From a bacterium (GTDB lineage: Bacteria; SAR324; NAC60-12), in NCBI GenBank assembly GCA_965233585.1, contig CBDDTI010000670.1, positions 1 to 44,432 on the forward strand: 44,432 nt of DNA, written 5' to 3'. The notes beneath the pieces were generated by a model. That model did not search any database. It saw nothing but the letters and a program-made list of their open reading frames with translations, and had not been told where the DNA came from. A program made the translations under genes and the position numbers. Positions within the stretch are counted from its first letter, which is position 1. Every line of letters starts with the position of its first letter. Below, piece after piece: positions 14,631 to 31,419 of the stretch.

Positions 14631-14679
14631 TTTTAAGGACTTATTTTGTTGTATATAAAAATTCAAGTAAGCTTTGGAA

Positions 14680-17600
14680 ATGGATTTTATAGAAATTCCG
14701 CGAAATTTAAAAAGATCTAACTGCTTGGAATGGAATACTCGATATGATAAATTCAACTTTCTTTATCTGTACATTAGACATCTTTTTCCAGAAACTGCTT
14801 CCATTACAGATTTTCGTCAAATGCCAATAAAATATCTTAAAAAATTCAACATAAAAGGTTTTACGTTTCCTCTTCAATTTTGTGACATAAAAAAATTTTT
14901 GTGTAGAAATCGTCATTTACCAATTTCAATTTCCGTACTTTATGAGAGTGAAGGTCACGTTTCAAATTTAGGGTTTATTACTAACAAAAACAATGATATA
15001 AGAGAAAATACTCTCCATTTGTTAATGATAAAACACGATCCTAAAATCTCTTCCGATAAAACTTCGAGTAATTCCCGCCCCAAAAAATCGAGTTTTTCTT
15101 CCAAGTTTAAAAAAATCAAAGATTTAAATCAACAGCATCATTTCTTTAAAATTACAAAACTCCAAGGTTTTTTGAATAATCGGGCCGGACTGTTGTCGAT
15201 TAATAAAGCGGGTCAACAGAAGTACATCCACTGTGAAAAATGTCTGCTGCGTTTCCGATCAAAATCCAAGAAAGAAAAGCATGAGCGGATTTGCTACGAT
15301 AAGCAACGCACCATTTATCCCGGCAAAAATGCCGCTATAAGTTTTTCTAACCACAAACATAAGTTTAAAGCACCTGTTGTGGGATTTTGTGATTTTGAAA
15401 GTGTACTTCAAAGAAACAAGGAACGATCTAAATGTCGACTTTGTTCTAAATTGGAATGCTTGTGTGCTTTTCCCACAAGTGACGATATAAATGTGCATAG
15501 ACCGGTAGGCTACAGCCTGATTTTTGTGGACTCCGAAAATGAAGTATTCTTTCAAGAAGAATATTTAGGAGAGGATGCGGCCAAACGTTTTTTGGATCGG
15601 ATACCTCTCTACGAAAAAGTTGTTGAAGAAAGAAAACAAAAATTCAGAGATGTTCTCAAAACTCAAGCCACTCAGGAGGAATGGCAAATGTTTCGAAAAG
15701 CAACCGTTTGTCATATATGCGGTCTTCGATTTGCTACCCATCCTAAAAAGTATAGAAAAGTTTTGGATCACGATCATGTCACAGGAAAAATAATGGGTGC
15801 GGCTCATTCGCTGTGTAATTTGACAAGATCCGGACCTTATCACACGCCAATTTTTTTCCACAACGCTCAAGGGTAAAAATTTTTTATTAACTTTATTTTT
15901 TAATTAATTTTTTAACAAATTGAACGTTTCAGATACGATTTGCATTTAATCATAGAAGAGTTAAACATTTGCCGATTCAAGAAAATGCCGGAAGTCTTGG
16001 CTAGAAACAGTGAAAAATTCCGCACTCTTACATTGGGCAAATTTAAAATCCAAGATTCATTAGAGCACATATCTGCCAGCTTAGACGCTCTTGTCCAAGA
16101 TTTGAATCAAACTTCAAACTTTTCTTTCCCTATTTTACAACAGATGAAAAGATTTCAAAAAATTCCTATCCGTCAAAAATCAAAAGCTTTTAAACTTTTA
16201 AAAAGAAAAGGCATTTTTTGTTACGAGCATTTTCAATCATTACAAGAAATGAAAAAAAGTCGAAACCTCCCAACCAAAGATGCTTTTTATTCTGAATTGA
16301 ATGAAGAACACATCTCGGAAACGGATTATTCTCATGCGCAAGAAGTCTTCAAACTGTTCAAGTGCAAGAATGTGGCGGATTACATGATGCTTTATTGTTC
16401 TTTGGATGTCATCCTGCTATGTGAAGCATTTCTTCAATACAGGAAAATGGTTATGGAACACTTTCAATTGGATCCAATCTATTACTTAGGTGAATTTCTT
16501 TTTCTGTTGCTTGACATATAAAGTTTGAATATAAAATTTATTTTGTATAATTTTAGGAATTCCTGGACTAAGTTTTGATGTTATGCTTATGTTCTATCAA
16601 AACTCTGAACGAGCTACAACAACAAAAGATAACCTCGCGGGTGAATCTTCCAAACCTCCAGGATCTCTGGATATCTATTCCGATCCTGAAATGGAGCAGT
16701 TTTTTACAAAGGGTATCAGAGGCGGACAAAGCTTTATCTCTCAGCGTTATGCAAAAGGAAACAGCAATCCGAGAAAAAGCGGCGATCATTTACTTTACAT
16801 TGACGGTAATTTTATACTGCATCGTTTGATTAATCTATTTATTTAAAATCGGTGACTTTTTAGCAAACAACTTGTACGGGAGCATGGAAACTTTAAAATT
16901 GCCAGTTTCTGATTTCGAGTGGGTTGCAAAAAAAGATCTTGAAAAATGGACTGCCAAAGATATTATCAAGATTCCTTCTCAAGACGAGACCGGGTACGCA
17001 TTCGAAGTTGATTTGCATTATCCTTCTCATCTTCACCCGGTAAATCTGATCTTTTTAACACGTTTTTTGCATTTTGATAAACGGTAAAATATTTACAGAC
17101 ACATGATCAATTTCCGCTGGCTCCGTATACAGACACGGTTTCTTACAAACATCTGTCTCCTTATAATCGCCGTTTACTAAAACATCTCAACCCTCGAGAT
17201 TATAAGAACAAAAGATACCGAAGCAAGAAACTGTTGAGCACTTTTTATGATCGAAAAAAGTACGTGGTGCATCTGGAAAATCTACAATATTATTTGAAAA
17301 AAGGCATGAAGCTGTTGAGGATAAGAAGAGCCGTGAAGTTTCGGCAAAAAGCTTTTTTGAAGGAGTTTATTGAAAAGGTCACGATGCTACGATCAAACGC
17401 CCGCAACGATTTTGAACTTCGGCTTTTTAAGCTTTTTGCCAACTCTACTTTTGGAAAGTTTATCGGTAAGTAAATACCCAGATTTAAGATCTTTTTTATA
17501 TTTTTATATTTGCACAAGCGTGTGGTGGTACTGCCAATATTTCGTGCAAAATGTGTTGGCAGTACACACCACACGCTCATCCGCATCTTCAATGTCATCG

Positions 17601-19428
17601 GGAGGCGCGTGGACCTCGGCCTCCACGGTGATGACCTCCCCGTCAAAATCGGACATTCGGTTTGCCGCTGCCCGGATTTTGGCCAGGCGGACAATCTCCG
17701 TTGCCCGACGTCTGGCGGCAATAGACCTGTCGTCGGCGGGGAGTCTGATGGGGATGGGGGCCTCAATAGGAACGTCAGTGGGGATCTCGATGGGGAACTC
17801 GATAAACGCCTCGGTGGGGAACTCGGTGGGGGCCTCGATGGGCACCTCGATGGGGACGGGGACCTCAATTGGCACCTCGGTGGGGACGTTGGTGGGAATC
17901 TCGGTGGTAGGGAACTCGATGAGAAACTCGGTGGGGGCCTCGATAAGGGACTCGGTGGGAGCTTCGATAAGCATCTCGATGGGGGACTCGGTGGGAGCTT
18001 CGATGAGCATCTCGATGGGGGACTCGGTGGGAGCTTCGATGAGCATCTCGATGGGGGACTCGGTGGGAGCTTCGATGAACGCCTCAACGGGGACGGGGAC
18101 CTCAGTGGACGCTTCGGTGGGAAGGTCGACAAGGATGCCGGTGGGGACGTCGGGCTCAATAAAATTTTCATTTTGAAAGCCTCGGACATCACGACCGCCG
18201 CCGCCACTGCTAGCGCCGCTGGCGGCGAGCACAGCAACGCCAACGGAGAGTGCAACGGCAGCGGCGCTAGCGGTGGCGGAGGCGGCAGCGGACGGCGGAG
18301 CATCAAAAATCCCGGCCACGACCGACCGGATCCGCCGGATCAGGCCCGGTCTCCGGTTCTTCTTCTTCTTCTCCTCCTCCACCTCCTCCACCGCCAAAAG
18401 CGGCTCTCCATCCTCCTCCCTTAACCTCCTGTACCCCCTCCTCATCTCCATCATCATCATTTTCCTTTTCTTCTTCCTCCTCCTCTTCCTGTCCAAAGTT
18501 TGTTTTGAAAATTGCCACATGGTTTTGGGAAGTTTTTAAAAAATGAATCTCCAAACTCCTACACACTTTATAATGAATTTTTATAAAAATGTTGTATTCT
18601 TTATAAAATATTTATTTTATTTTATATTTTTCAGAAAATGTTCGAAATTACATCGAAGTGGTCCTTTGTGGAGATGAAAAAAGTCTGAGGAAAGCCAGTC
18701 TTGGTCAACACATCAACAATTTTCAAATCATTAATGAGAATTTGGTGGCTGTCAACAAGAAGCCGGCAATGATAGAGCTTAAAAAGCCTTTAGCCGTCGG
18801 ATTTTCCATTCTAGAGTTGTCCAAGTTGTTTATGTACAGATCATACTATGACACCATTCAAAAACATTTCGGCAAAGACAATGTATCTTTGTGTTTTTCG
18901 GACACGGATTCTTTTCTTTTAAAAGTTAAATGCAACAATTTGGAAAGGGAAATGGAGAGATTGAAACACATGTTTGATTTTTCAAAGTACCCTAAACAAC
19001 ATCCACTTTTTGACGACAGTAAAGCCAATCAACTTTTTTATTTTAAAGATGAATTAAAAGGTAGAGCGGCTATTACTGATTTTATAGGCTTACGTCCAAA
19101 ATGTTATTCTATGAAAATAGCCGATTTTTTGGACAAAAACAAAACTGATGAGAAAAAAGTATGCAAAGGTTTAAAAAAATCTAGTATAAAAAAGCAATTA
19201 ACTTATGCAGATTACAAAAAGTGCTTAAAGCAAACTGTTGTAATTTACAAATCTTTTAAAAATTTAAGATCAAAGAATCACAAAATCCGAACGTGTTTTC
19301 AAAGAAAAATTGCGTTGTCGGCAATGGATTCCAAAAGATATGTTTTAAATTGCGGATGTCACACTTTATCGCTAGGAAATTGTCTTATTGTTAACAACAA
19401 AATGTCTAAATGTCAAATTTGTAAATAA
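14680..19428 (+). CDS. polB: Protein-primed family B DNA polymerase, six exons (14680-15872, 15933-16489, 16557-16805, 16864-17039, 17099-17465, 18635-19428), ~1111 aa
   Basis: Splicing restores HNAQG/YD, LDPIYYLG/IPGLSFD, YID/ANNLYGSM, HLHP/THDQFPLAP and KLFANSTFGKFI/ENVRN. Also FCDFES (Exo I), an EndoVII-like CHICG..DHDHVTG..HSLCN insert, FSDTDS and LRPKCY. Confidence 0.93.
17504..18520 (-). CDS. Nested antisense gene inside polB intron 5 (basic N-terminus, hydrophobic segment, Pro/Glu/Thr repeats)
   Basis: 338-aa ATG ORF that fills the intron. On the minus strand: TATAAAG at 18572, TCATTT initiator at 18544 and CAAAACCATG start context. Confidence 0.65.
   Translation of the reverse strand: MWQFSKQTLDRKRRRKKKRKMMMMEMRRGYRRLREEDGEPLLAVEEVEEEKKKKNRRPGLIRRIRSVVAGIFDAPPSAAASATASAAAVALSVGVAVLAASGASSGGGGRDVRGFQNENFIEPDVPTGILVDLPTEASTEVPVPVEAFIEAPTESPIEMLIEAPTESPIEMLIEAPTESPIEMLIEAPTESLIEAPTEFLIEFPTTEIPTNVPTEVPIEVPVPIEVPIEAPTEFPTEAFIEFPIEIPTDVPIEAPIPIRLPADDRSIAARRRATEIVRLAKIRAAANRMSDFDGEVITVEAEVHAPPDDIEDADERVVCTANTFCTKYWQYHHTLVQI
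17951..18079. repeat. 36-bp coding tandem repeat (IEAPTESPIEML), within a degenerate 12-bp periodic tract at ~17760-18150
   Basis: Units CTCGGTGGGAGCTTCGATRAGCATCTCGATGGGGGA start at 17951, 17987 and 18023, with a partial unit at 18059. Confidence 0.9.
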
Positions 19429-19494
19429 AAAATAATTAAATCATTACTTTTATTTAAAAGAAAATTTTGTAATTTCTTTTTTAAAATTAATAAA

Positions 19495-20190
19495 ATGAAC
19501 GGTTTTGATTTGAGGTTTAATATTCCGTCCAACATGTTGGTTGTCGGTCCAACATCAAGCGGAAAAACAACGTGGCTAAAACATTTAGTGCTTCGTCGGC
19601 ACGAATATTTTGCAACTCCGCCTGAAACAATGTTGTTGTTTTACAAGGAACCGCAAAAAGCATATCAGTACATGGAAGACGACATGAATGAGGGCAGAGG
19701 TTCTGACACACAATTTCCGTCTTTTCGTAAATTCAAAAATATTCCAAATTCAATTGAAGAGTTGAAAGATATTTTAGAATTATATCCGAGAAAAATGCCC
19801 AAATTGATTGTTTTTGACGATTATTTAGACGATGTTGGGCAAATATTAAAACATTTTTTTACGGTTTTGACCCATCATTACAATTGTTTCACCATTTTTC
19901 TTTGTCAAAATTTATTTGACAAAAAAGGCGATTTACGGACATTAAGCATAAATACGCAATACATGATCCTTTTTAACAATCCGCGGGACAGAAGCGCCGT
20001 CACACATTTGGCAAAACAAATTTTTCCCGGTCGTGTTGGAATCTTAAATAAAGCATATAGAGAAGCAGTTAACGGTCGAAGTCACGGATATCTTCTTCTA
20101 GATTTCCATCAACAGCAAGACGATAAAGTCAGAATTCGAAGTAACATCTTTCCTTATGAAGGATTAATGAAAGCCTACGTTACTGTTTAA
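19495..20190 (+). CDS. A32/FtsK-like genome packaging ATPase
   Basis: Walker A GPTSSGKTT, Walker B LIVFDDY, then THHYN, LCQNLF and GYLLLDFH. Confidence 0.92.
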   Translation: MNGFDLRFNIPSNMLVVGPTSSGKTTWLKHLVLRRHEYFATPPETMLLFYKEPQKAYQYMEDDMNEGRGSDTQFPSFRKFKNIPNSIEELKDILELYPRKMPKLIVFDDYLDDVGQILKHFFTVLTHHYNCFTIFLCQNLFDKKGDLRTLSINTQYMILFNNPRDRSAVTHLAKQIFPGRVGILNKAYREAVNGRSHGYLLLDFHQQQDDKVRIRSNIFPYEGLMKAYVTV

Positions 20191-20236
20191 AAATTTCATA
20201 TCTATTTAAGAAAAATTAAAAATAATTACTGTTAAA

Positions 20237-21477: not shown

Positions 21478-21960
21478 TCATCGTTTATTTTCAAGTTTTT
21501 TTATAAAATGAGTTACAATTTCATCATTTTTTATTTTGGGTTTTTTTACAAATATTTTAACAAATTGTTGAGGAGACATTAAATTGTTGCCCACGGATAA
21601 ACAAAAAGCGGTCACGTACCAGCCGCAAAACAAAGAACGAAAATCCTGAATGGAATAAGACAGGATTGTTTTGAATGAGTTTTTTTCTATCCAAGGTCGT
21701 AAGAACTTCATCAAACATTGATTCCATATCGGCGGTAAAAAACCGAATGAATCAAAATAATAGAGTTGATTTTTTCCGTTGATATACATCGCTATGAAAT
21801 GTGATCCTTTTTGATTTTTTTTGGATAAGTTGGTGATGAAGCAACAAGGCAACTCAAGCGAATCGGACGGCAAATTATCGCTTGAAAAAACCCCGATGAA
21901 ATATTTACATCTTGGTCGAATATAATTGGATAAAAAGATATTTGATAATCCGTTTTCCAT
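21478..21960 (-). CDS. Adenain-like cysteine maturation protease
   Basis: GVFSSDNLP, GSHFIA, YFDSFG and IQ..SLFCGWY (His-Asp-Gln-Cys set). Confidence 0.93.
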   Translation of the reverse strand: MENGLSNIFLSNYIRPRCKYFIGVFSSDNLPSDSLELPCCFITNLSKKNQKGSHFIAMYINGKNQLYYFDSFGFLPPIWNQCLMKFLRPWIEKNSFKTILSYSIQDFRSLFCGWYVTAFCLSVGNNLMSPQQFVKIFVKKPKIKNDEIVTHFIKKLENKR

Positions 21961-21963: not shown

Positions 21964-23307
21964 TTAATTTGTTCCTTTTATAACTTGTTGGAATTGATCT
22001 ATTTTAATGCCGGAGTTAAAAACAGAAAAAGCCAGAACGTATATAGGATGAGGAGTTATTACGGAAAAAGCCAATTCTAAATCTAAATTTCCGTAATTTT
22101 CCGGATGCACGTGGAACGAATTACATTGATCTGGTGTTAAATCGGCCGCTAGAAAAAATCTTCCGTTTAAATATTGTTCATACGTTAAACCAATGGATTG
22201 ATTGCCGTGCGAAATGCCAATACTGTCGTATAAATGCCGATACAAGTCAATGGCGTCCCCCTCGTTTATATTAGGTTGAAATGGTCTGGGAAATACGCAT
22301 TGTCCGTTCTTTTTTAAATTAAAAGTAGACAGATTAAAATGTTGAAAATTGAAAGGGTTTTTGTCCGGGGCGTGTGACATGGCTTGATTGTGAACCATCA
22401 CAAAAAACACTTGTTTCGGCAAAGTACCATTAGCGATATTGGCGATGTTAAAGGACGACACGCCTTGAGGAATAACATAATGTCTTAAACGTGTGGCGCT
22501 AAAAGGCAGGTAGCACGGTTCTTTTAAGAGTTTGTTTTTAAAACTTTCCCGTAGCAATAATGTGGGCAACACCTTTCTCATATGTAATTTGACATCTTTT
22601 AAAACAATTTTAAAAGGTTTTTCTGCCGCGGCATCTTGAAGCAAACCAAACTTTTCAGCGGATCTAACCAGCTTAATTTTGATGTCCACATTCGGAGGTA
22701 AAAATCTGTCGGTGTCAAACAGATCAACGGCTAAGCGCGTATTGAAATACACTTTTTTACCATCCATAATTAACTGCTTTCTTTTATTCAAAGACGGTGT
22801 GGCGGTTGTAACATTTATGGTATCAACTTCGTTAGCACTTTCGGGATAATAACCTTCAGCAGCCAGATAAGTTTTTTTCACCTCCGAATTGTAACTTAGG
22901 AATGATTGTATGAACATTCTCCAAGGATAAGTGACCGCTGAACTTAAATCAGCTACTTGGACCCCGTTTAAATATACTTCTACTTGGCTGAATAAACAAG
23001 CGGCAAAATGATTAGCCAGTGTGACTTTAGTATCATTTTTTACCTGTTCACCATCGTCATTTGTCACTACAAAATAGCCGCTAAGTCTGGTTTGATTCAG
23101 TATAAAAGAGCATTCGTTATCGCGAGGAACAAGAAATTCGACCGGTCCGGTGTTGGTGATAGAAGCCACGCTATTGTAAATAACGTGAGCCCCATCTAAT
23201 AAACCTGTTTCTACTTCTAACGGTGAGTGAAGCGCTAAACCACTTTCAGTGCCGTCGTTTTGTTCAACGGCCAATCCGGCAATTCCGCTTTTTTCAGGTA
23301 CGCCCAT
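21964..23307 (-). CDS. Double jelly-roll major capsid protein (PY/hexon-like); likely start MGVPEK
   Basis: GPVEF, ACLFSQVEVYLNG, YPWRMFI, DRFLPPNVDIKIKL, LPKQVFFVMV, NPFNFQHF and ADLTPD. Confidence 0.9.
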   Translation of the reverse strand: MGVPEKSGIAGLAVEQNDGTESGLALHSPLEVETGLLDGAHVIYNSVASITNTGPVEFLVPRDNECSFILNQTRLSGYFVVTNDDGEQVKNDTKVTLANHFAACLFSQVEVYLNGVQVADLSSAVTYPWRMFIQSFLSYNSEVKKTYLAAEGYYPESANEVDTINVTTATPSLNKRKQLIMDGKKVYFNTRLAVDLFDTDRFLPPNVDIKIKLVRSAEKFGLLQDAAAEKPFKIVLKDVKLHMRKVLPTLLLRESFKNKLLKEPCYLPFSATRLRHYVIPQGVSSFNIANIANGTLPKQVFFVMVHNQAMSHAPDKNPFNFQHFNLSTFNLKKNGQCVFPRPFQPNINEGDAIDLYRHLYDSIGISHGNQSIGLTYEQYLNGRFFLAADLTPDQCNSFHVHPENYGNLDLELAFSVITPHPIYVLAFSVFNSGIKIDQFQQVIKGTN

Positions 23308-23313: not shown

Positions 23314-23856
23314 ATGGAAGTGCTGGTCAGCAATGTAAAAATTAGTTGTAAAGTTCATCTTATTAACAGCGACGAAATTTCTTTTAATACCGATAATACA
23401 ATAAAACGTTATAATAATTTTGTTGTAATAAGAAAAAAATATTCCTTTATTATATTTACCAAAACAAAGCAAAATCGACATTTTCACGTAAACATTACAA
23501 AAATTCCCTCTACAGAACACATTGCGAAAGCATTAGACGAACTAAAACTTGTTATAAATAGCGAATTTGTTGTTAAAATATTTAAAGTAGAAAACATGAC
23601 TTGTTTGTATCAATCAAAAGAAGAGATCAAATTATTAAGATTTTACAACCATTTAAAATCGAATGAAGATTTTGAAATCATTCATAAGAGATACGACCCA
23701 GAAAAATTCCCAGGCGTATTTTTAAAAGTAAAAAAGTGTTCGGCTTTAATATTTTCGTCGGGAAAAATAGTTATAATTGGAGCCTCCAGCGAAGAAGATG
23801 CTAAACAAGGAATAAAAATTATTATTAAATTATTAAAAAAATATAAAATCGAATGA
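23314..23856 (+). CDS. TBP: TATA-binding protein-like (divergent, 180 aa)
   Basis: C-terminal repeat KVENMTC...YDPEKFPGVFLK..SALIFSSGKIVIIGASSEED. Diverged N-terminal repeat VSNVKISC...NNFVVIR.KYSFIIF..VNIT. Confidence 0.88.
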   Translation: MEVLVSNVKISCKVHLINSDEISFNTDNTIKRYNNFVVIRKKYSFIIFTKTKQNRHFHVNITKIPSTEHIAKALDELKLVINSEFVVKIFKVENMTCLYQSKEEIKLLRFYNHLKSNEDFEIIHKRYDPEKFPGVFLKVKKCSALIFSSGKIVIIGASSEEDAKQGIKIIIKLLKKYKIE

Positions 23857-23912
23857 TGTAAATAATGTTTATTTAGTTGAGTTTCGATATCTATACAATA
23901 AACATCGAAATT

Positions 23913-24671
23913 ATGCACGAGAAAGTAGATTATACTAAAATATGCAATCATGAATATCCAGTAGAAGACACCAGGCAAGGGGACGTGGTGTGTACCGAGT
24001 GTGGATTAGTTATTGATAAAATATATTGCTATAATTCAACAAAATCAAATTTGGAAACAGAATGGGACAAAATAAAAACATTTGATAAAGAAATTAAACA
24101 AAAAAACCAGCATTTAGAGAAAGAAAAAAATATTTTAAAAATTTTATGCAATAAATTACATTTAAATAATGATGTTACAAATGTTATTTTGAATCTATGG
24201 TCAGATATAGCAGCGTGGCATTATCGAAAAGGTGGAAAAATTAAAATAGATGCCAAAGGATTGGTGGTTATGGCGTTGTATCAAGGGTTGATAAAAGAAA
24301 AAATTCCCCGTCCGATAAGTCATTTGTGTCAAGAAGTCGGCATTAATCCAAAGATAGTGTGGCGTTGGATGAAATTATACAGACGGGATTTGACTGACAT
24401 GAATAAATTAGACAATTACATAAAGGCGAAAGATATGAAAGAATATTTTTTACAGCCGCTGCAGTTAAATTATCAAGAAATGACGTCCATTGAACAAATA
24501 TTAAAAAAAAATGAAAATAGTTCTTTTGCTCCAAGAACTTTATTAGCTGCATGCGCTTATGCCTTTTTAAAAGAATCCAAATTGCGATATTTAAGCGTCA
24601 AAAACATGGCTCACATTTTAGGCGTCAGTGTTATGTCGTTGTACAGATGTCGTAAAAGTCTAAATCAATAA
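23913..24671 (+). CDS. TFIIB: TFIIB/Brf-like transcription initiation factor (252 aa)
   Basis: Zn ribbon CNH..VEDTRQGDVVCTECGLVID. Cyclin-fold-like repeats: LCNKLHL, PRPISHLC, PRTLLAACAY and KNMAHILGVSVMSL. Confidence 0.85.
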   Translation: MHEKVDYTKICNHEYPVEDTRQGDVVCTECGLVIDKIYCYNSTKSNLETEWDKIKTFDKEIKQKNQHLEKEKNILKILCNKLHLNNDVTNVILNLWSDIAAWHYRKGGKIKIDAKGLVVMALYQGLIKEKIPRPISHLCQEVGINPKIVWRWMKLYRRDLTDMNKLDNYIKAKDMKEYFLQPLQLNYQEMTSIEQILKKNENSSFAPRTLLAACAYAFLKESKLRYLSVKNMAHILGVSVMSLYRCRKSLNQ

Positions 24672-24680: not shown

Positions 24681-25082
24681 ATGAATTACCACAGCGGTTT
24701 ACATTGGCAACGAGGTTCGGGAATTGGATCGCTTTTTTCCGGAATTTTTCGCGGATTAATGCCGGTAGCAAAATCGACGATAAAAACTATTGGACGTGTA
24801 GCCAAAAGCGCCCCGATAAAATCTGTAGGAAAAGCTTTAAAAAAAGAAGCGACAAGAGCGGCTGTAGAAACGGCGATAGAAGCTTTGGAGGGTCAACCGG
24901 TGGGCAGAAAAGCAAAACAACGTTTAAAATCCGCTACACGAGGTATTTTGCTTAACGCTGCCAGACAAGCCGATAGCAACGACGACTATCGAACTCAAAA
25001 TTCGAACAGAAAAAGGAAACCCTCGTCAATTACGCAATCTAGGAAAAAAAGGCGCAAAATATCGAAAGAACCTCTGTTTTAA
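24681..25082 (+). CDS. Basic Polinton core protein with an N-terminal amphipathic helix
   Basis: QRGSGIGSLFSGIFRGLMPVAK and an Arg/Lys-rich tail. Confidence 0.78.
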   Translation: MNYHSGLHWQRGSGIGSLFSGIFRGLMPVAKSTIKTIGRVAKSAPIKSVGKALKKEATRAAVETAIEALEGQPVGRKAKQRLKSATRGILLNAARQADSNDDYRTQNSNRKRKPSSITQSRKKRRKISKEPLF

Positions 25083-26171
25083 ATGTCGACAACAACAAAA
25101 GAGATTTTTTTAAAAGAATACGCGAAACCGGGTTCGCCAATAGCTTTTGCATCTCCCGCCCTAATCTATCATTATTATAAGAAACAAATCCCTTTGACGT
25201 TAATCGAGGAGTGGCTAAAAGGAACAGACTCCTACACATTACACAAACAGCCTAAATTTCCCAGACCGAGAAATCCAACATTTGCTTATCGAAAACGGTA
25301 TCAGTTTCAAATTGACCTTATAGATTTAGGAAATTTGGCTGAACAAAATGATTCTAATAGATACCTTTTGACAGCCATTGATATTTTTACACGATTCGCC
25401 TTTGTAGAACCACTAAAAAATAAAATGGCAAAAACATTTATGGAAGGCTTTGAATCTATTATGAAAAGAGCAAAACAATTTCCGCGTAGAATTTTAGCCG
25501 ATAAAGGAGCGGAAATTAAGAATAAATTGTTTCAAGCCTACTGCAAAAACAATAACATTCTTCTGTTACACAGCAATAATTTTGTGCACGCCCCCTTTGT
25601 GGAAAGATTTAACCGAACTTTAAAAAACCTGTTGTTTAGATACATGACTCACGAAAATACCGATAGGTACATTGACGCGTTACCCTTTCTTGTCCATACC
25701 TACAACAATCGTAAACATCGCATGATCGGAATGTCACCTGCCGAAGCCGAACTCCCCGGGAGAACCTATCACATTAGAAGAAAACAAGAATTGGTTTATT
25801 CAAAGATTAAAAGAACGAAACCAAAATACAAAATCGGTCAAACCGTGCGTATTAGTATTATGAAGGGGAAATTTGACAGAGGATTTACGCCGCAATTCAA
25901 AGAAGAAATTTTTAAAATAAAATCAATTTCTACACGTTTGCCAAAACCCACTTATGAGTTAGAGACTTTGGAACAGGATGAAACTTTGGAAGGAAATTTT
26001 TATGAAAGTGAGCTTACACCCGTAGATGAGCCAGAAGTATTTGCCATCGAAAAGATTCTTCGGACAAAAAAAGATAAAAAAACCGGTGAAAAAATGGCTT
26101 TAATAAAATGGAAAGGGTATAAAAACCCTAGTTGGACATACGAAAAAGACATAGTCGATATGCCACAATAG
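25083..26171 (+). CDS. int: Retroviral-like DDE integrase with C-terminal chromodomain
   Basis: QIDLIDL, AIDIFTRF, ADKGAE, VERFNRTLK, and chromo-like IEKIL...IKWKGY..SW. Confidence 0.95.
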   Translation: MSTTTKEIFLKEYAKPGSPIAFASPALIYHYYKKQIPLTLIEEWLKGTDSYTLHKQPKFPRPRNPTFAYRKRYQFQIDLIDLGNLAEQNDSNRYLLTAIDIFTRFAFVEPLKNKMAKTFMEGFESIMKRAKQFPRRILADKGAEIKNKLFQAYCKNNNILLLHSNNFVHAPFVERFNRTLKNLLFRYMTHENTDRYIDALPFLVHTYNNRKHRMIGMSPAEAELPGRTYHIRRKQELVYSKIKRTKPKYKIGQTVRISIMKGKFDRGFTPQFKEEIFKIKSISTRLPKPTYELETLEQDETLEGNFYESELTPVDEPEVFAIEKILRTKKDKKTGEKMALIKWKGYKNPSWTYEKDIVDMPQ

Positions 26172-26177: not shown

Positions 26178-27917
26178 ATGGATTATAATATTTATTGCGT
26201 GTCAAACGCTAGTTCCGATACGGATGACAAAAATACTTTGAATTCTTTTACCAATTTATTTCCACAAAATTTAGACTTGAAAGATAGAGAATGGGAAATT
26301 GGAATAGTGTCTATTGGATTACATTATAATTACAACCAATTAACTTTGTCAAAAGGCCAATCTTGTTTTATCACGCTAAAAAACGAATTAACATCTATAG
26401 ACTCTTCGGAAGAAGACATAAGGTCCGAAATTTTAGACCAGACAAAATCCATTTGGGTTTTGCCTGATTTAGATGAAGATGTATTGACAGTGCATAGACT
26501 GATGCAAAACTTGATGCAATATATTTACAAGGAAGGAATGGGATTGTATAGTTTTAAACCCAAATCAGGGGGTAAAGATGAAAAAGCTTATGTAATAGAT
26601 GAAAATCCGAAAAAAGAAATGGAAAATGAAAATTACAATTATAATAGGTATTTGTTGATACATAAACATTTAATAAAAATTTTAAGATTAAAATGTTACC
26701 AAAACGGCTTTGTGTCCTCCCAAGCAAAAACAATTAAGTTATTTGACAACGAATATGCATACTTTTCTGTAAAGAAAAATTTTGCGCTTCTAACTACAGC
26801 AATTAAAGCGTATTCCGTTTTGAAGCCCGGTCTGGTTCAAATAAAATCAAATATTATTTCCGACGTTCCCAGCGGAAATAGTTATTCCACAATTATGTTT
26901 ACAATGACTTTGCCTAATCAAATGGAAGGTTATTATTTTTACCATAATGTAAAAAAAATCAGATATTATCAGGTGCGACAAACCAATATCGAAACGATAA
27001 ACACACAATTTACAGATTCTTTTGGAAATCTTTTAAGTTTAAACGAAGGACAGCCGTCTATAGTGCATTTTCATTTAAAAGAAAAAGACAAAAATATGGA
27101 TTACGAATTAACGCACGTACGAATTGATTCACAAGTAGATACCAAATTGAATTACGAAAATACAAATAGTAGCTTTTGGGTGCACTTAAAACATCCAATA
27201 AGTTTGAATCAAAACGTAAAAATAGCCTTGATGGATATATCTTTTCCCAACACCATATGTAGCATTCCAGAATCAATTGGAAGGAATCCGTTTATCTTTA
27301 ATGTGTTAATGACCCAAAACGAAACAAAAAGACACGTCGTGGAAATACCAAAACTTTATTTCTGCAACTCTGATGATCTAACAACATCAATGAACCGTCT
27401 GTTATCTGAAGAACTAAAGGAAATTTTACATTTTGACAACTTTAACGGGTTCTTTAGGATTGTGGCTAAAACAGATAAACCCTTTTCGATAAGCATTCCC
27501 AAAAACTTTTGCCCGTTTTTAGGAATGTACGATTACTCGGAGAAAGAACTTGCAAGAATTGAGGAACGAGGTGATTACGTCACGCTTGCAGTGACTAAGG
27601 AAAGATTTTTTGAAGCACCACAACCAATAGACGTTTACAAGTTATATCCCGGTGTTATGATATGTTATGCAAATTTTGTTCAACATTCCATTATTGGAGA
27701 CAAATTTTACCCAACATTTAGAGTTATACCAACAATCGGCCAATCCACACAAAATGATTACTGTTCTATCCATTTTGAACATTTAGAATTCATAAGATGC
27801 AATGTCGATTATTTAGACAACATGAAGATCGAACTGAGGAGATTAGACGGGAATTTGATTGAATTTAACGACGATCGAAGAATAATTTTAAACATTGTAA
27901 TAAAAAATCCAATTTAA
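26178..27917 (+). CDS. Minor capsid (penton/PX-like) protein made of two tandem units
   Basis: Unit 1: SNAS....NTLNSF...LDL..EWEIGIVSI...FTDSFGN...VHFHLK. Unit 2 (from 27096): NTNSSF.V.L.HPISL...IALMDISFP...IIGD...RVIP...IELRRLDGNLIEF. Confidence 0.8.
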   Translation: MDYNIYCVSNASSDTDDKNTLNSFTNLFPQNLDLKDREWEIGIVSIGLHYNYNQLTLSKGQSCFITLKNELTSIDSSEEDIRSEILDQTKSIWVLPDLDEDVLTVHRLMQNLMQYIYKEGMGLYSFKPKSGGKDEKAYVIDENPKKEMENENYNYNRYLLIHKHLIKILRLKCYQNGFVSSQAKTIKLFDNEYAYFSVKKNFALLTTAIKAYSVLKPGLVQIKSNIISDVPSGNSYSTIMFTMTLPNQMEGYYFYHNVKKIRYYQVRQTNIETINTQFTDSFGNLLSLNEGQPSIVHFHLKEKDKNMDYELTHVRIDSQVDTKLNYENTNSSFWVHLKHPISLNQNVKIALMDISFPNTICSIPESIGRNPFIFNVLMTQNETKRHVVEIPKLYFCNSDDLTTSMNRLLSEELKEILHFDNFNGFFRIVAKTDKPFSISIPKNFCPFLGMYDYSEKELARIEERGDYVTLAVTKERFFEAPQPIDVYKLYPGVMICYANFVQHSIIGDKFYPTFRVIPTIGQSTQNDYCSIHFEHLEFIRCNVDYLDNMKIELRRLDGNLIEFNDDRRIILNIVIKNPI

Positions 27918-27925: not shown

Positions 27926-28162
27926 TCAATAAAACAATTTATTTGAAAATAACGAATTATTGGTGAGATTTAATAAAGAAATATCTAAAGTTTGATTCGC
28001 AAGATTAAGCGCCTTTAAACCGTTATAAGTTAGTCTGTACATTAACCAAAGAAAAACGGAAGTAATAACAAAAATTGATAAAATCATCGCGCACAGACTA
28101 CAACAATCGTTTCTTGAACAAAGATCAGGAGATTACAAATCTTGATGAAACGTATCTTGGTC
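27926..28162 (-). pseudogene. 5'-truncated copy of the small membrane-protein gene (36284-36589)
   Basis: Reverse-complement match to ~36350-36589, cut at the duplication junction. Confidence 0.8.
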
Positions 28163-28338
28163 ATTCATAAGAGATACGACCCAGAAAAATTTCCAGGCGT
28201 ATTTTTAAAAGTAAAAAAGTGTTCGGCTTTAATATTTTCGTCGGGAAAAATAGCTATAATTGGAGCCTCCAGCGAAGAAGATGCTAAACAAGGAATAAAA
28301 ATTATTATTAAATTATAAAAAAATATAAAATCGAATGA
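28161..28338 (+). pseudogene. TBP: 3' fragment of the TBP-like gene
   Basis: Encodes HKRYDPEKFPGVFLK...; has a 1-nt deletion near the end. Confidence 0.85.
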
Positions 28339-28394
28339 TGTAAATAATGTTTATTTAGTTGAGTTTCGATATCTATACAATAAACATCGAAATT

Positions 28395-29153
28395 ATGCAC
28401 GAGAAAGTAGATTATACTAAAATATGCAATCATGAATATCCAGTAGAAGACACCAGGCAAGGGGACGTGGTGTGTACCGAGTGTGGATTAGTTATTGATA
28501 AAATATATTGCTATAATTCAACAAAATCAAATTTGGAAACAGAATGGGACAAAATAAAAACATTTGATAAAGAAATTAAACAAAAAAACCAGCATTTAGA
28601 GAAAGAAAAAAATATTTTAAAAATTTTATGCAATAAATTACATTTAAATAATGATGTTACAAATGTTATTTTGAATCTATGGTCAGATATAGCAGCGTGG
28701 CATTATCAAAAAGGTGGAAAAATTAAAATAGATGCCAAAGGACTGGTGGTTATGGCGTTGTATCAAGGGTTGATAAAAGAAAAAATTCCCCGTCCGATAA
28801 GTCATTTGTGTCAAGAAGTTGGCATTAATCCAAAGATAGTGTGGCGTTGGATGAAATTATACAGACGGGATTTGACTGACATGAATAAATTAGACAATTA
28901 CATAAAGGCGAAAGATATGAAAGAATATTTTTTACAGCCGATGCAGTTAAATTATCAAGAAATGATGTCCATTGAACAAATATTAAAAAAAAATGAAAAT
29001 AGTTCTTTTGCTCCAAGAACTTTATTAGCTGCATGCGCTTATGCCTTTTTAAAAGAATCCAAATTGCGATATTTAAGCGTCAAAAACATGGCTCACATTT
29101 CAGGCATCAGTGTTATGTCGTTGTACAGATGTCGTAAAAGTCTAAATCAATAA
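28395..29153 (+). CDS. TFIIB: TFIIB-like protein, copy B
   Basis: Near-identical to 23913-24671. Confidence 0.82.
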   Translation: MHEKVDYTKICNHEYPVEDTRQGDVVCTECGLVIDKIYCYNSTKSNLETEWDKIKTFDKEIKQKNQHLEKEKNILKILCNKLHLNNDVTNVILNLWSDIAAWHYQKGGKIKIDAKGLVVMALYQGLIKEKIPRPISHLCQEVGINPKIVWRWMKLYRRDLTDMNKLDNYIKAKDMKEYFLQPMQLNYQEMMSIEQILKKNENSSFAPRTLLAACAYAFLKESKLRYLSVKNMAHISGISVMSLYRCRKSLNQ

Positions 29154-29162
29154 AATACATAT

Positions 29163-29564
29163 ATGAATTACCACAGCGGTTTACATTGGCTACGAGGTTC
29201 GGGAATTGGATCGCTTTTTTCTGGAATTTTTCGCAGATTAATGCCGGTAGCAAAATCGACGATAAAAACTATTGGACGTGTAGCCAAAAGCGCCCCGATA
29301 AAATCTGTAGGAAAAGCTTTAAAAAAAGAAGCGACAAGAGCAGCTGTAGAAACGGCGATAGAAGCTTTGGAGGGTCAACCGGTGGGCAGAAAAGCAAAAC
29401 AACGTTTAAAATCCGCTACACGAGGTATTTTGCTTAACGCTGCCAGACAAGCCGATAGCAACGACGACTATCGAACTCAAAATTCGAACAGAAAAAGGAA
29501 ACCCTTGTCAATTACGCAATCTAGGAAAAAAAGGCGCAATATATCAAAAGAACCTCTGTTTTAA
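29163..29564 (+). CDS. Basic core protein, copy B
   Basis: Near-identical to 24681-25082. Confidence 0.78.
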   Translation: MNYHSGLHWLRGSGIGSLFSGIFRRLMPVAKSTIKTIGRVAKSAPIKSVGKALKKEATRAAVETAIEALEGQPVGRKAKQRLKSATRGILLNAARQADSNDDYRTQNSNRKRKPLSITQSRKKRRNISKEPLF

Positions 29565-30653
29565 ATGTCGACGACAACAAAAGAGATTTTTTTAAAAGAA
29601 TACGCGAAACCGGGTTCGCCAATAGCTTTTGCATCTCCCGCCCTAATCTATCATTATTATAAGAAACAAATCCCTTTGACGTTAATCGAGGAGTGGCTAA
29701 AAGGAACAGACTCCTACACATTACACAAACAGCCTAAATTTCCCAGACCGAGAAATCCAACATTTGCTTATCGAAAACGGTATCAGTTTCAAATTGACCT
29801 TATAGATTTAGGAAATTTGGCTGAACAAAATTATTCTAATAGATACCTTTTGACAGCCATTGATATTTTTACACGATTCGCCTTTGTAGAACCACTAAAA
29901 AATAAAATGGCAAAAACATTTATGGAAGGCTTTGAATCTATTATGAAAAGAGCAAAACAATTTCCGCGTAGAATTTTAGCCGATAAAGGAGCGGAAATTA
30001 AGAATAAATTGTTTCAAGCCTACTGCAAAAACAATAACATTCTTCTGTTACACAGCAATAATTTTGTGCACGCCCCCTTTGTGGAAAGATTTAACCGAAC
30101 TTTAAAAAACCTGTTGTTTAGATACATGACTCACGAAAATACCGATAGGTACATTGACGCGTTACCCTTTCTTGTCCATACCTACAACAATCGTAAACAT
30201 CGCATGATCGGAATGTCACCTGCCGAAGCCGAACTCCCCGGGAGAACCTATCACATTAGAAGAAAACAAGAATTGGTTTATTCAAAGATTAAAAGAACGA
30301 AACCAAAATACAAAATCGGTCAAACCGTGCGTATTAGTATTATGAAGGGGAAATTTGACAGAGGATTTACGCCGCAATTCAAAGAAGAAATTTTTAAAAT
30401 AAAATCAATTTCTACACGTTTGCCAAAACCCACTTATGAGTTAGAGACTTTGGAACAGGATGAAACTTTGGAAGGAAATTTTTATGAAAGTGAGCTTACA
30501 CCCGTAGATGAGCCAGAAGTATTTGCCATCGAAAAGATTCTTCGGACAAAAAAAGATAAAAAAACCGGTGAAAAAATGGCTTTAATAAAATGGAAAGGGT
30601 ATAAAAACCCTAGTTGGACATACGAAAAAGACATAGTCGATATGCCACAATAG
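29565..30653 (+). CDS. int: Integrase, copy B
   Basis: Near-identical to 25083-26171. Confidence 0.93.
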   Translation: MSTTTKEIFLKEYAKPGSPIAFASPALIYHYYKKQIPLTLIEEWLKGTDSYTLHKQPKFPRPRNPTFAYRKRYQFQIDLIDLGNLAEQNYSNRYLLTAIDIFTRFAFVEPLKNKMAKTFMEGFESIMKRAKQFPRRILADKGAEIKNKLFQAYCKNNNILLLHSNNFVHAPFVERFNRTLKNLLFRYMTHENTDRYIDALPFLVHTYNNRKHRMIGMSPAEAELPGRTYHIRRKQELVYSKIKRTKPKYKIGQTVRISIMKGKFDRGFTPQFKEEIFKIKSISTRLPKPTYELETLEQDETLEGNFYESELTPVDEPEVFAIEKILRTKKDKKTGEKMALIKWKGYKNPSWTYEKDIVDMPQ

Positions 30654-30659
30654 CGCGGA

Positions 30660-31419
30660 ATGGATTATAATATTTATTGCGTGTCAAACGCTAGTTCCGA
30701 TACGGATGACAAAAATACTTTGAATTCTTTTACCAATTTATTTCCACAAAATTTAGACTTGAAAGATAGAGAATGGGAAATTGGAATAGTGTCTATTGGA
30801 TTACATTATAATTACAACCAATTAACTTTGTCAAAAGGCCAATCTTGTTTTATCACGCTAAAAAACGAATTAACATCTATAGACTCTTCGGAAGAAGACA
30901 TAAGGTCCGAAATTTTAGACCAGACAAAATCCATTTGGGTTTTGCCTGATTTAGATGAAGATGTATTGACAGTGCATAGACTGATGCAAAACTTGATGCA
31001 ATATATTTACAAGGAAGGAATGGGATTGTATAGTTTTAAACCCAAATCAGGGGGTAAAGATGAAAAAGCTTATGTAATAGATGAAAATCCGAAAAAAGAA
31101 ATGGAAAATGAAAATTACAATTATAATAGATATTTGTTGATACATAAACATTTAATAAAAATTTTAAGATTAAAATGTTACCAAAACGGCTTTGTGTCCT
31201 CCCAAGCAAAAACAATTAAGTTATTCGACAACGAATATGCATACTCTTCTGTAAAGAAAAATTTTGCGCTTCTAACTACAGCAATTAAAGCGTATTCCGT
31301 TTTGAAACCCGGTCTGGTTCAAATAAAATCAAATATTATTTCCGACGTTCCCAGCGGAAATAGTTATTCCACAATTATGTTTACAATGACTTTGCCTAAT
31401 CAAATGGAAGGTTATTATT
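30660..31419 (+). pseudogene. Minor capsid gene truncated by the non-LTR element
   Basis: Identity to copy A stops after NQMEGYY. Confidence 0.88.

Follow-up and report, generated by a model that had tools for sequence, protein, structure and literature searches.

Adjacent TBP and TFIIB homologues in the conserved gene set of an animal Maverick/Polinton lineage

All three nuclear polymerases work with TBP and TFIIB-like factors. Cellular TBP presents the surface of its C-terminal repeat and stirrup to TFIIB while its N-terminal repeat meets TFIIA and regulators, and the B-reader/linker of cellular TFIIB is required to select the start site and to open the DNA. Viral versions of TBP and TFIIB have been described in large viruses equipped with an RNA polymerase of their own; the Nucleocytoviricota encode a multisubunit enzyme that is served by their TBP and TFIIB. 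Small nuclear DNA viruses are, to our knowledge, thought to rely on the basal factors of the host, with the TBP mimic of herpesviruses as the exception. This mimic (BcRF1, ORF24 or UL87 in beta- and gammaherpesviruses) acts on TATT-type late promoters, is large and unrecognisable by sequence, and contacts Pol II itself; we know of no TFIIB homologue in the herpesviral late complex.

Poxviral VITF-3 is described in one report as a TBP/TFIIB-like factor (PMC12917281). For the mid-size eukaryotic linear dsDNA (MELD) viruses, figure legends label one gene 'TBP' and describe it as homologous to a host protein (Starrett et al. 2021, PMC8502044; bioRxiv 10.1101/697771). These viruses are likewise Polinton-related and are the only precedent found in this group, but they derive from non-animal data sets, and the legends mention no TFIIB and hold no analysis of linkage, asymmetry or function. 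An earlier reading of the present locus, made from the sequence only, had known of no characterised Polinton with a TBP-TFIIB pair. For the pair this stands, as no description of it in Mavericks or Polintons was found in the literature, while for TBP alone the label in the MELD legends is a precedent. Here, we report that both genes encode genuine viral homologues of TBP and TFIIB and belong to the conserved gene set of an animal Maverick/Polinton lineage that lacks an RNA polymerase.

The element and its copies

The window, that is the whole stretch of 44,432 nucleotides that was analysed, is animal DNA mis-binned with a bacterium. It harbours a multi-copy Maverick/Polinton that is bounded by terminal inverted repeats (TIRs) and integrated in an animal genome. 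Complete copies of about 22.9 kb were found on contigs C30 and C77, with TIRs of about 540–690 bp (about 550) at both ends, and the 'Polinton-like virus' of about 20 kb proposed by the sequence-only reading is instead a true TIR-bounded Maverick/Polinton of this larger size. Described Polintons carry a 6-bp target-site duplication; no matching flanks were found at the two full copies, the exact termini of which are uncertain.

Three copies were delimited in the window by a repeat map. Copy A (8009–28162, plus strand) starts where coverage by other copies begins, near position 8000, with a left TIR (8009–8550, unstranded) that includes 53-nt tandem units at 8154–8471 and is found inverted at both ends of the full copies. 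Its right end is absent from the window, and for this reason an inverted-repeat search within the window gave no TIR pair. The partial copy B (28161–31422, plus strand) begins inside TBP, which is reduced to its last 58 or so codons, has an intact TFIIB at 28395–29153 and is followed by a LINE. Copy C (36350–44432, minus strand) is inverted and runs off the window. The pair had been noted to recur there with TBP intact, and the TBP (40661–41200, minus strand) is indeed 98% identical and free of stops; the TFIIB, which starts at 40601, is on the other hand frame-shifted near 40011 by a one-base difference in the length of an A-run after about codon 197.

The Polinton set of capsid, ATPase, protease, integrase and protein-primed PolB is present in the element, with ATPase and protease assigned by sub-threshold Pfam matches. 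The replication region (14674–19428, plus strand), placed by Pfam and by tblastn collinearity with the S3 element, consists of a 400-aa Endonuclease_7 ORF followed by PolB pieces at 15997–16491, 16553–16810 and 18700–19389, which share 59–66% identity with the S3 homologue; a GC-rich repeat at 17290–18520 interrupts it. Pfam DNA_pol_B_2 scored above its cut-off in the S3 element and at 14 sites across the assembly. The probable packaging ATPase (19495–20190, plus strand) has a Walker A motif, is putatively A32-like (Pox_A32, E 0.0024, below cut-off) and shares 62% identity with its counterpart in the S3 element. A probable adenain-like protease of 160 aa (21478–21960, minus strand; Peptidase_C5, E 0.046, below cut-off) follows the capsid gene, a position that is conserved.

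The major capsid protein (447 aa, 21964–23307, minus strand) is encoded head-to-head with TBP, the two start codons being 6 nt apart. It has 81 relatives, including an NCBI 'F54H12.2-like' protein of a lizard (30% identity, E 5.6e-48); one of 28 aligned relatives matched Pfam DJR-like_dom, and the Atlas lead to DJR-like_dom clusters was 0.98. A search of the capsid profile against PDB sequences returned nothing, as did searches of the capsid and six other element proteins against PHROGs. Directly after TFIIB lies a gene for a 133-aa protein, Gly-rich at its N-terminus and basic at its C-terminus (24681–25082, plus strand), which has no family match in Pfam or PHROGs and may be a core protein. 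It is followed by an integrase (25083–26171, plus strand) with an rve core (Pfam E 4.9e-9, 36.8 bits against a cut-off of 32.6) and a C-terminal chromodomain (Chromo, E 7.6e-5), and by a 579-aa protein (26178–27917, plus strand) that the sequence-only reading took for a putative penton and for which Pfam, PDB and PHROGs gave no matches. No RNA polymerase domain was found in Pfam scans of the ORFs of the window or of the scanned ORFs of the S3 element, in agreement with what the sequence had suggested. In the right-end region of a full copy, inspection of the ORFs by eye showed nothing of the size of an RNA polymerase.

The TBP and TFIIB homologues

The two genes had been read as adjacent, co-oriented and uninterrupted, and are placed as claimed: a TBP of 180 aa (23314–23856, plus strand) and a short TFIIB of 252 aa (23913–24671, plus strand). 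The TFIIB coordinates are counted from the first ATG, and the ORF under translation table 11 opens at a TTG at 23877. In 41 of the 42 TBP matches of the assembly, TFIIB starts 56–113 nt downstream of TBP on the same strand, and the one exception is a fragment of a broken copy; TBP is free of stops in 39 of the 42. The capsid gene lies head-to-head upstream of TBP, and the genes for the 133-aa protein and the integrase lie downstream of TFIIB. Pair and gene order are kept in all subfamilies, down to 36% identity for TBP and 28% for TFIIB, with adjacency retained across subfamilies at 28–39% identity. The identical order, including the gene for the 133-aa protein directly after TFIIB, recurs on an unrelated metagenome contig, L017. 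This was the one locus found when metagenome contigs were scanned with P0326; the same contigs scanned with the TFIIB alignment yielded no loci, and viral contigs scanned with the TFIIB alignment, the TBP alignment or P0326 yielded no related loci.

Both genes are under purifying selection. Between S1 and S2, at dS of 0.55–0.71, dN/dS was 0.18 for TBP and 0.25 for TFIIB, compared with 0.11 for the capsid, 0.06 for the integrase and 0.135 for the protease, and within S1 it was 0.17 for TBP and for TFIIB. These ratios cover the S1–S1, S2–S2 and S1–S2 comparisons, those for S3 having been set aside for saturated dS or heterogeneous grouping. Related elements were found neither to lack the genes nor to show ratios near 1. 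Nor do the genes look like recent copies of host genes: the viral TBP shares 19–27% sequence identity with the solved TBPs among its Foldseek PDB matches, and the short TFIIB belongs to a family of 1084 clusters at 50% identity.

The folds claimed from the sequence were borne out for both proteins by Pfam, profiles, AlphaFold2 and Foldseek. The TBP of the window matched Pfam PF00352 with E 1.6e-18 and 66.8 bits against a cut-off of 22.9, the match covering the C-terminal repeat only (residues 108–195 of the 198-aa TBP ORF). In five other element variants TBP likewise passed PF00352, and in all six TBPs scanned it was the C-terminal repeat alone that matched. The AlphaFold2 model, for which the input alignment included four canonical-type TBPs, reached a pLDDT of 91.4 with strand and helix elements in both halves. 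When this model was compared with the PDB by Foldseek, ranks 1–44 among the matches listed were all TBPs (E 1e-10 to 5e-7), with TM scores of 0.58–0.74 over 190–204 alignment columns against TBPs of about 180 residues, so that both repeats were spanned. Two tandem repeats of the TBP saddle are thus seen in the model as well as in the Foldseek alignments.

The asymmetry that had been described for this TBP is real, as seen from Pfam, the model and the alignment. Its C-terminal repeat is near-canonical and the N-terminal repeat strongly diverged; both the motif YDPEKFPG and LIFSSGKIVIIGA are found in the protein. The N-terminal repeat alone had no Pfam match, a profile-profile comparison of the two halves revealed no similarity (probability 0.1), and helix H1 is missing from the N-terminal repeat in the model. 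Of the DNA-contacting Asn and intercalating Phe positions, N7, F48, N94, F132 and F147 occupy invariant columns in a MAFFT alignment with the four canonical-type TBPs, where the residue equivalences of the N-terminal repeat rest on this one alignment and on the model built with the same four proteins. The first Phe of the N-terminal stirrup adjoins a 7-column gap and has no assignable counterpart, and beside the last Gly of the C-terminal repeat the family has Ile or Val where the canonical residue is presumably Thr. Compared with the cellular Pol II pair (e.g. the human TBP/TFIIB/DNA structures 1c9b and 1vol, both among the fold matches), the viral TBP shares the two-repeat saddle, the C-terminal stirrup and, where the alignment assigns them, the Asn/Phe positions, but differs in its low identity and in an N-terminal repeat that fails Pfam and is without helix H1 in the model. 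Another difference is that the viral genes reside on a mobile, virus-like element present in dozens of copies.

Among named viral structures, those closest to the TBP model were TBPs of giant viruses (Heterosigma akashiwo virus, E 9.8e-12; Terrestrivirus; ChoanoV1) and an asfarvirus-like B263R homologue, at 8–20% identity. The Nucleocytoviricota (giant viruses, asfarviruses, iridoviruses) and poxviruses resemble the element in encoding TBP and TFIIB homologues, whereas the element has no RNA polymerase among its scanned ORFs and measures about 23 kb against more than 100 kb. Weak fold matches were obtained to BcRF1 (E 1.8e-3) and to an ORF of ranid herpesvirus (E 1.4e-5).

The viral TFIIB consists of a zinc ribbon (C-x-H...C-x2-C), a short variable spacer and two cyclin folds, and is identified by profiles, model and Foldseek. 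Pfam Zn_Ribbon_TF scored 28.8 bits on the TFIIB of the window, just below the cut-off of 29, and 33.8 bits on that of a sister S2 copy; across the family it (PF08271) matched 31 of 58 representatives at E≤1e-3, and the four metal ligands of the ribbon (C11, H13, C27, C30) are identical in all 18 aligned members. The cyclin family PF00382 matched 24 of the 58 representatives, with no match on the TFIIB of the window itself. A profile from 25 relatives matched human TFIIB twice and collinearly, once over the ribbon and once over the cyclin core (E 4e-7). One from the 58 representatives gave a single match to human TFIIB residues 14–287 that begins in the ribbon and reaches the second cyclin fold (E 3.2e-28), with weaker matches to yeast TFIIB (1e-17), archaeal TFB (1.4e-16), Brf1 (1.5e-16) and Brf2 (1.7e-9). 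The model shows ten helices within residues 69–251, and Foldseek with this model placed TFIIB, TFB, Brf1 or Brf2 at ranks 1–35 of the PDB matches (best E 5.9e-9).

Human TFIIB is the best-scoring solved relative and shares with the viral protein an N-terminal C-H-C-C ribbon and two cyclin folds, but its ribbon knuckle, as read from the profile alignment, is C-x2-H where the viral one is C-x-H, and about 42 of its residues, in the B-reader/linker, are without counterpart in the viral family profile. The short reader/linker region noted from the sequence, along with the ribbon and cyclin repeats, is thereby confirmed. As the conserved B-reader and B-linker are missing, the viral TFIIB is a homologue of a shortened type and not a canonical TFIIB. 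The stretch EWDKIKTF, which had been read as a B-reader, occurs in the window's own subfamily only; the spacer between ribbon and core varies in length and sequence, with pLDDT below 50 over residues 36–65, and this variability in the alignments rules the stretch out as a feature of the family. At 50% identity, 1084 representatives of the short-TFIIB family reach E≤1e-3 and 259 reach E≤1e-10; the 150 best are mostly 200–290 aa long, and none of ten clusters sampled bore a name. A search of the assembly for a host TFIIB with PF00382 gave no matches.

Candidate promoters and proposed function

The 8-mer TATTTAAG is positioned with a strong bias in six variants of the element, where 11 of its 15 occurrences lie 30–130 nt upstream of a gene start and in sense, compared with 144 of 2466 for the 8-mers of the same composition (all 280), the next best of which has 4; TATTTAAG was found post hoc in related elements, and its occurrences are therefore not independent. 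Five of the 11 upstream copies are in short non-coding spacers and six within coding sequence, where codon constraint could account for them (antisense TBP codons, TFIIB codons). The count of TATTTAAG in the window was not above chance (6 against 3.2 expected, with at least 6 in 13 of 100 shuffles), and the distant relative L017 had no exact TATTTAAG and 3 one-mismatch matches against 5.8 expected. Among 75 upstream regions the most enriched 7-mer was ATTTAAG (13 regions, 1.7 expected), followed by TATAAAA (12 regions, 2.6 expected).

The genes behind TATTTAAG or its TATT[T/A]AA variants are those for the capsid, a second capsid, the ATPase, a 124-aa protein and the 133-aa protein. In the window, TATTTAAG is found at 20203–20210 (plus strand), in a non-coding spacer of 46 nt and 34 nt ahead of the 124-aa gene, and at 24588–24595 (plus strand), inside the 3' part of TFIIB and 93 nt before the 133-aa gene. 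The variant TATTTAAA (19451–19458, plus strand) lies in a non-coding spacer 44 nt before the ATPase gene, at a place where the S2 copy has TATTTAAG. Another variant, TATTAAAAG (23381–23389, minus strand), is about 82 nt before the capsid start and antisense to the TBP codons ...SFNT..., and S3 elements have TATTTAAG at the equivalent place upstream of the capsid. A canonical TATAAAA is present at 23842–23848 (plus strand), 71 nt before the TFIIB start, and TATAAA[AT] is found 58–88 nt upstream of TFIIB in five of the six element variants. Given the canonical TATAAA before TFIIB, it seems that host TBP could read the element at least in part.

On balance, and with some reserve, we favour the view that TBP and TFIIB cooperate in the nucleus and form an initiation module, specific to the virus, for host Pol II, a view in which DNA specificity, TBP-TFIIB contact, recruitment of Pol II and timing are what we infer. 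The saddle of the viral TBP would bind a viral sequence of TATA-like type, the best candidate being TATTTAAG with its TATT[T/A]AA variants. The C-terminal repeat and its stirrup (YDPEKFPG) would then grip the viral TFIIB by its cyclin core, and the zinc ribbon of this TFIIB, which is invariant, may dock host Pol II. The diverged N-terminal repeat of TBP and the absent B-reader/linker of TFIIB might confer insensitivity to host regulators and alter the setting of the start site. The analysis suggests that the element can start transcription of its own genes without host start factors.

A fuller version of this view is possible and is advanced tentatively. An old and large clade of animal Maverick/Polinton viruses, with about a thousand clusters of the short TFIIB at 50% identity, may own a self-contained TBP-TFIIB module, in which TBP gave up the face for host cofactors and TFIIB gave up the B-reader/linker, and which loads host Pol II on a TATT-type promoter of virion genes. 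Such a module may have arisen in convergence with the herpesvirus late complex, which also belongs to a nuclear DNA virus without its own polymerase and also employs a protein of TBP fold; the candidate TATT[T/A]AA(G) is similar to the TATT element of herpesviral late promoters. Unlike in the herpesviruses, both proteins of the element are recognisable and true homologues of cellular factors. If this is correct, control of initiation is part of the conserved tool kit of widespread animal genome parasites and a possible route to expression of the element despite host control. It would also offer a naturally minimal TFIIB that lacks the B-reader/linker, along with a one-sided TBP, for dissecting what Pol II loading needs. 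The sequence profiles A1, A4 and A5 would serve the annotation of Mavericks and studies of their activity.

The module for a virus-specific promoter must be weighed against a simpler function, in which the pair has no promoter specificity of its own and adds to the basal factors, in surplus or in a form insensitive to regulators, wherever host TBP or TFIIB is limiting, replaced by paralogues or repressed; the germ line, silenced chromatin or the early embryo would be examples. Ordinary TATA boxes would then be the target of the viral TBP, in keeping with the Asn/Phe positions of the saddle that are retained in the alignment, with TATAAA[AT] before TFIIB in most variants and TATAAAA as the second most enriched 7-mer, and with the absence of TATTTAAG from L017. 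We nevertheless think this function unlikely, since the N-terminal repeat is strongly diverged in every variant, which is hard to square with unchanged DNA recognition, and since the placement of TATTTAAG is far from random.

The missing B-reader/linker counts against the favoured module, as a TFIIB without it might recruit Pol II without supporting initiation. A protein that has lost these 42 or so residues and kept the Pol II-docking ribbon and the cyclin core could, with the diverged TBP, act as a decoy, forming initiation-incompetent complexes with host Pol II, TBP or TFIIB that damp host transcription or antiviral responses. For this purpose one protein would suffice, yet both are encoded side by side in 41 of 42 matches and on L017, and a general shut-off factor would presumably harm a germ-line element at dozens of copies; we regard such a role as improbable.

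Brf1 and Brf2 are among both the fold and the profile matches of the viral TFIIB, and a Brf-like function with Pol III, or a non-transcriptional one at the ends, the origin or a packaging signal of the element, was considered accordingly. The profile favours TFIIB (3.2e-28) over Brf1 (1.5e-16) and Brf2 (1.7e-9), and the proteins are too short for a C-terminal extension of the Brf type, which leaves these roles little chance. Least of all can the genes be seen as captured host genes decaying without function in the element, for all that speaks for this is that some copies are broken, with TFIIB frame-shifted in copy C and TBP truncated in copy B, while 39 of 42 TBP matches are open, dN/dS is 0.17–0.25, order and adjacency are kept across subfamilies and on L017, and the TFIIB family comprises 1084 clusters at 50% identity.

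The TBP and TFIIB proteins

The uninterrupted 180-codon frame at 23314–23856 (+ strand) encodes a member of the TBP family. Its Pfam TBP match (E 1.6e-18) covers the C-terminal half only, and the C-repeat alone was matched in all six TBP variants scanned. An AlphaFold2 model, built from 23 aligned sequences that included canonical-type TBPs, had a mean pLDDT of 91.4, and among the PDB matches listed for it ranks 1–44 were all TBP (E 1e-10 to 5e-7, TM 0.58–0.74, 190–204 aligned columns), which together with the Pfam match bears out the fold proposed in an earlier, sequence-only reading. When the PDB was searched with the single viral sequence, only residues about 124–179 aligned; the best PDB scores for the C-repeat were those of archaeal TBPs (E 6e-19), with eukaryotic ones next (2e-14). 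The C-terminal half of the model has the complete strand-helix-four-strands-helix pattern, the N-terminal half is without the first helix, and a profile comparison detected no similarity between the two halves. Alignment with four canonical-type TBPs gave the invariant columns N7, F48, N94, F132 and F147 and an N-terminal stirrup 7 columns shorter in the viral protein. The description of an asymmetric TBP that keeps its Asn and Phe positions is largely upheld by the C-repeat-only Pfam match and these invariant columns, except that the first Phe of the N-repeat was not assignable.

The 252-codon frame at 23913–24671 (+) encodes a member of the TFIIB family of a shortened type that lacks the B-reader/linker feature. 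Its Pfam zinc-ribbon match reached 28.8 bits against a cut-off of 29, short by 0.2. A profile of 25 relatives matched human TFIIB in two collinear stretches, the ribbon and the cyclin core (E 4e-7, only 33 bits), and a profile of 58 representatives aligned human residues 14–287 (E 3.2e-28); human TFIIB outscored yeast TFIIB, TFB, Brf1 and Brf2 against the family profile. In a fold search with the model (pLDDT 74.9, residues 1–9 and 36–65 below 50), ranks 1–35 were TFIIB, archaeal TFB, Brf1 and Brf2 (best E 5.9e-9), followed by cyclins, and the TM-scores were low, about 0.33, because the model positions the ribbon and the two cyclin domains differently. The profile matches and top-ranking folds agree with the original assignment of this gene. 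The ribbon ligands C11, H13, C27 and C30 were invariant in 18 of 18 family TFIIBs aligned. The family profile leaves unmatched about 42 residues of human TFIIB that separate ribbon from core, which we take to be the B-reader loop and B-linker region, and the ribbon-core spacer varies in length and sequence across the short family. The proposed shortening of the reader/linker thus stood, but the "EW...TF" resemblance cited with it is confined to the window's subfamily. The two proteins may differ in history, the TBP C-repeat scoring best against archaeal TBPs and the TFIIB family against human TFIIB; alternatively, archaeal TBP repeats may simply be nearer the repeat consensus.

Linkage, breadth and selection

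The assembly contains 42 TBP matches, 39 of them without stops, with identities to the window protein of 93–100% in its own subfamily S1, 76–79% in S2 and 36–39% in the distant S3. For 41 of these a TFIIB match starts 56–113 nt downstream on the same strand, the remaining one being an N-terminal piece in a broken copy, and all have a capsid gene upstream, head-to-head, and the 133-aa gene and integrase downstream. Across S1–S3 the integrase remains about 60% identical, while TBP (36–39%), TFIIB (28–32%) and capsid (38–42%) have diverged to a similar degree. Outside the assembly, a public protein collection gave 40 TBP matches, comprising 36 family TBPs and four of canonical type, and 48 TFIIB matches, all without names and from metagenome or run assemblies. 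The length reported for the longest contig (e.g. 8156, 10894, 6759) is the same in several of the TBP, TFIIB and capsid clusters, which is indirect evidence that they share contigs. On an unrelated 3.2-kb metagenome contig (L017), a capsid gene on the opposite strand is followed by TBP (Pfam E 1.3e-14, C-repeat only), TFIIB and a Gly-rich basic protein. When a profile of 18 family TFIIBs was used in an exhaustive search, 1084 representatives (at 50% identity) reached E<=1e-3, of which 259 had E<=1e-10 and 21 E<=1e-30. The 150 best of the 1084 were mostly 200–290 aa with end-to-end matches, and names were absent from 10 of 10 TFIIB clusters looked up, one of which pointed to contig L017. Since human TFIIB scored so low with the narrower profile, we infer that most of the 1084 probably belong to the short family rather than being cellular TFIIBs.

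Purifying selection acts on both genes, if somewhat less strongly than on the capsid and integrase genes. Nei-Gojobori dN/dS, from codon alignments of intact copies in the unsaturated S1–S2 comparison (dS 0.45–0.83), was 0.18 for TBP and 0.25 for TFIIB, far below 1, as against 0.11 for capsid, 0.06 for integrase, 0.135 for protease and 0.18 for the 133-aa gene; within S1 (dS about 0.08) both TBP and TFIIB gave 0.17. Comparisons with S3 were left out because dS was saturated or the grouping heterogeneous. That the pair is dead cargo is contradicted by these values and by the linkage, and is very improbable.

The element and its host DNA

The window belongs to a 12-Mb assembly of 747 contigs filed as a prokaryote genome (92% complete, 2% contamination). 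The same assembly holds animal DNA, with 41 matches to the rhodopsin-type receptor (GPCR) family, many of them full length, and many animal contigs (e.g. C26, C3, C5, C93). These 41 matches and the 42 TBP copies in Mavericks mark the window as eukaryotic DNA that was binned with a bacterium by mistake. The label "Polinton-like virus" is replaced here, as this is an animal Maverick/Polinton, unlike the capsid-only viruses of that name.

Of its three copies in the window, A extends from about 8009 to 28162 with the left inverted repeat only, B (28161–31422) begins within TBP, and C (36350–44432) is inverted and runs off the window. Full copies on two other contigs (C30, C77) are about 22.9 kb with inverted repeats of 540–690 bp at their ends, of which the window holds the left one alone; no target-site duplication was seen at the flanks of these two. 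A 53-nt tandem unit is present six times at 8154–8471, within the terminal inverted repeat.

The genes come in the order C2H2 zinc-finger ORF, endonuclease-VII-domain ORF, protein-primed PolB, packaging ATPase and two small ORFs, then on the opposite strand protease and major capsid protein, followed by TBP, TFIIB, the 133-aa basic protein, an rve-chromo integrase and a 579-aa protein; ATPase and protease are assigned from sub-threshold Pfam matches. The labels "core" for the 133-aa protein and "penton" for the 579-aa protein are tentative, as neither had a match in Pfam or PHROGs, nor the 579-aa protein in the PDB. At the right end of a full copy the ORFs are small. For the capsid protein 81 relatives were found, including a lizard NCBI protein, "F54H12.2-like" (30% identity, E 5.6e-48), and one that matches Pfam DJR-like_dom. 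S3 elements carry two tandem capsid paralogues (L011:7973–10717, L013:6775–9533, L014:6449–9310, L015:6394–9299), 40–53% identical to the window's single capsid protein. PolB exceeds the Pfam DNA_pol_B_2 cut-off in a sister subfamily and is in pieces in the window, with a GC-rich repeat in between. This repetitive stretch (17290–18520, about 47% GC) has long open frames on both strands and is common to about 10 other copies, its flanks to about 26. At 16491–16553, a gap of ~61 nt, which is a short intron or else a disruption of the frame, separates two PolB pieces whose S3 homologue is a single continuous frame. The left arm has an ORF at 9836–10270 (+) for which no family match was found; its N-terminus is hydrophobic and it includes a long Thr/Ser-rich (mucin-like) stretch.

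The first 8 kb of the window (1–8000, about 53% GC) contain LTR-retrotransposon remains, with a reverse transcriptase (2411–3127), an rve integrase (3903–4796) and an ORF matching a Monjiviricetes-type viral fusion glycoprotein (5991–6983, Pfam E 8.6e-12), and may derive from an envelope-bearing retroelement. An apparently intact LINE (31604–36037, − strand; also given as 31604–35167) lies between copies B and C; its 1187-aa ORF carries an endonuclease and a reverse transcriptase domain and is preceded by a 286-aa ORF.

A possible role in transcription and candidate promoters

In the Pol II system a TATA-type element is bent by TBP, whose C-terminal stirrup is bound, together with flanking DNA, by the core of TFIIB; the polymerase is docked by the TFIIB ribbon. 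The N-repeat surface of TBP and the B-reader/linker serve in cells in host-cofactor regulation and in start-site selection or DNA opening. The viral pair has kept the C-terminal stirrup, cyclin core and ribbon and, it appears, most of the saddle positions, and has lost the N-repeat surface and B-reader/linker; the kept parts would be exactly those required for a minimal TBP-TFIIB-polymerase chain. Pfam found no RNA polymerase domain among the scanned ORFs of the element, in line with the original statement that none is encoded. Use of the pair as a private loader, bringing host Pol II onto the element's own promoters with a TATT-type box before the virion genes as candidate site, would be most economical for an element without its own polymerase, and we consider it somewhat more likely than not. 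Alternatively, the pair may be a generic booster insensitive to regulators, which we regard as possible but considerably less probable, or a decoy incompetent for initiation, which appears unlikely. That the pair works with another polymerase, or binds DNA for a purpose other than transcription, is more doubtful still.

In giant viruses, asfarviruses and poxviruses such factors work with a polymerase that the virus itself encodes, and giant-virus TBPs are the closest viral structures to the present one (8–20% identity). The herpesviral TBP mimic is a weak structural match and, to our knowledge, herpesviruses have no TFIIB. Among the openly searchable full-text papers listed for Polintons/Mavericks, none describes a TBP+TFIIB pair, and neither protein was found by term in PMC11071296, PMC11131425, PMC10748475, PMC8363768 and 10.64898/2026.06.19.733378. 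The only precedent found is in Starrett et al. 2021 (PMC8502044), whose figure legends label a gene "TBP" in viruses that come from non-animal data sets; the figures and supplements of that paper could show more, such as unnamed conserved genes matching the pair.

The start codons of capsid (23307, −) and TBP (23314) face away from each other 6 nt apart, so each promoter must lie within the coding sequence of the other gene, lie far away or be supplied through splicing. In S3 elements the capsid and TBP frames share a few bases. Over the 125-nt stretches that precede 75 gene starts in six element variants, the most enriched 7-mers were ATTTAAG (13 regions, 1.7 expected), TATTTAA (12, 1.8) and CTATTTA (8, 1.0), followed by TATAAAA (12, 2.6). 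The sequence TATTTAAG, which was both discovered in and tested on this one set of related elements, has 15 occurrences over the two strands of the six variants. Eleven of them are in sense 30–130 nt upstream of a gene start (four for capsid, two for the second capsid paralogue, two for the 124-aa gene, one for ATPase and two for the 133-aa gene). Same-composition 8-mers were so placed at 144 of 2466 occurrences, each of the other 279 at most four times. Five of the 11 upstream sites are in short non-coding spacers and six within coding sequence. The count of TATTTAAG is not above chance in the window, it is absent from L017, and in S1 and S2 the variant TATTAAAAG precedes the capsid gene. TATAAA[AT] is found 58–88 nt before TFIIB in five of six variants. 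Between TBP and TFIIB, three variants have an AATAAA 1–12 nt ahead of the TFIIB start codon (window 23895–23912, with equivalents in L016 and L011), and TTTCAG-like or TTGCAG-like sequences resembling splice acceptors lie 25–35 nt upstream in several; judged by motif, the two genes could have poly(A) and splice signals between them.
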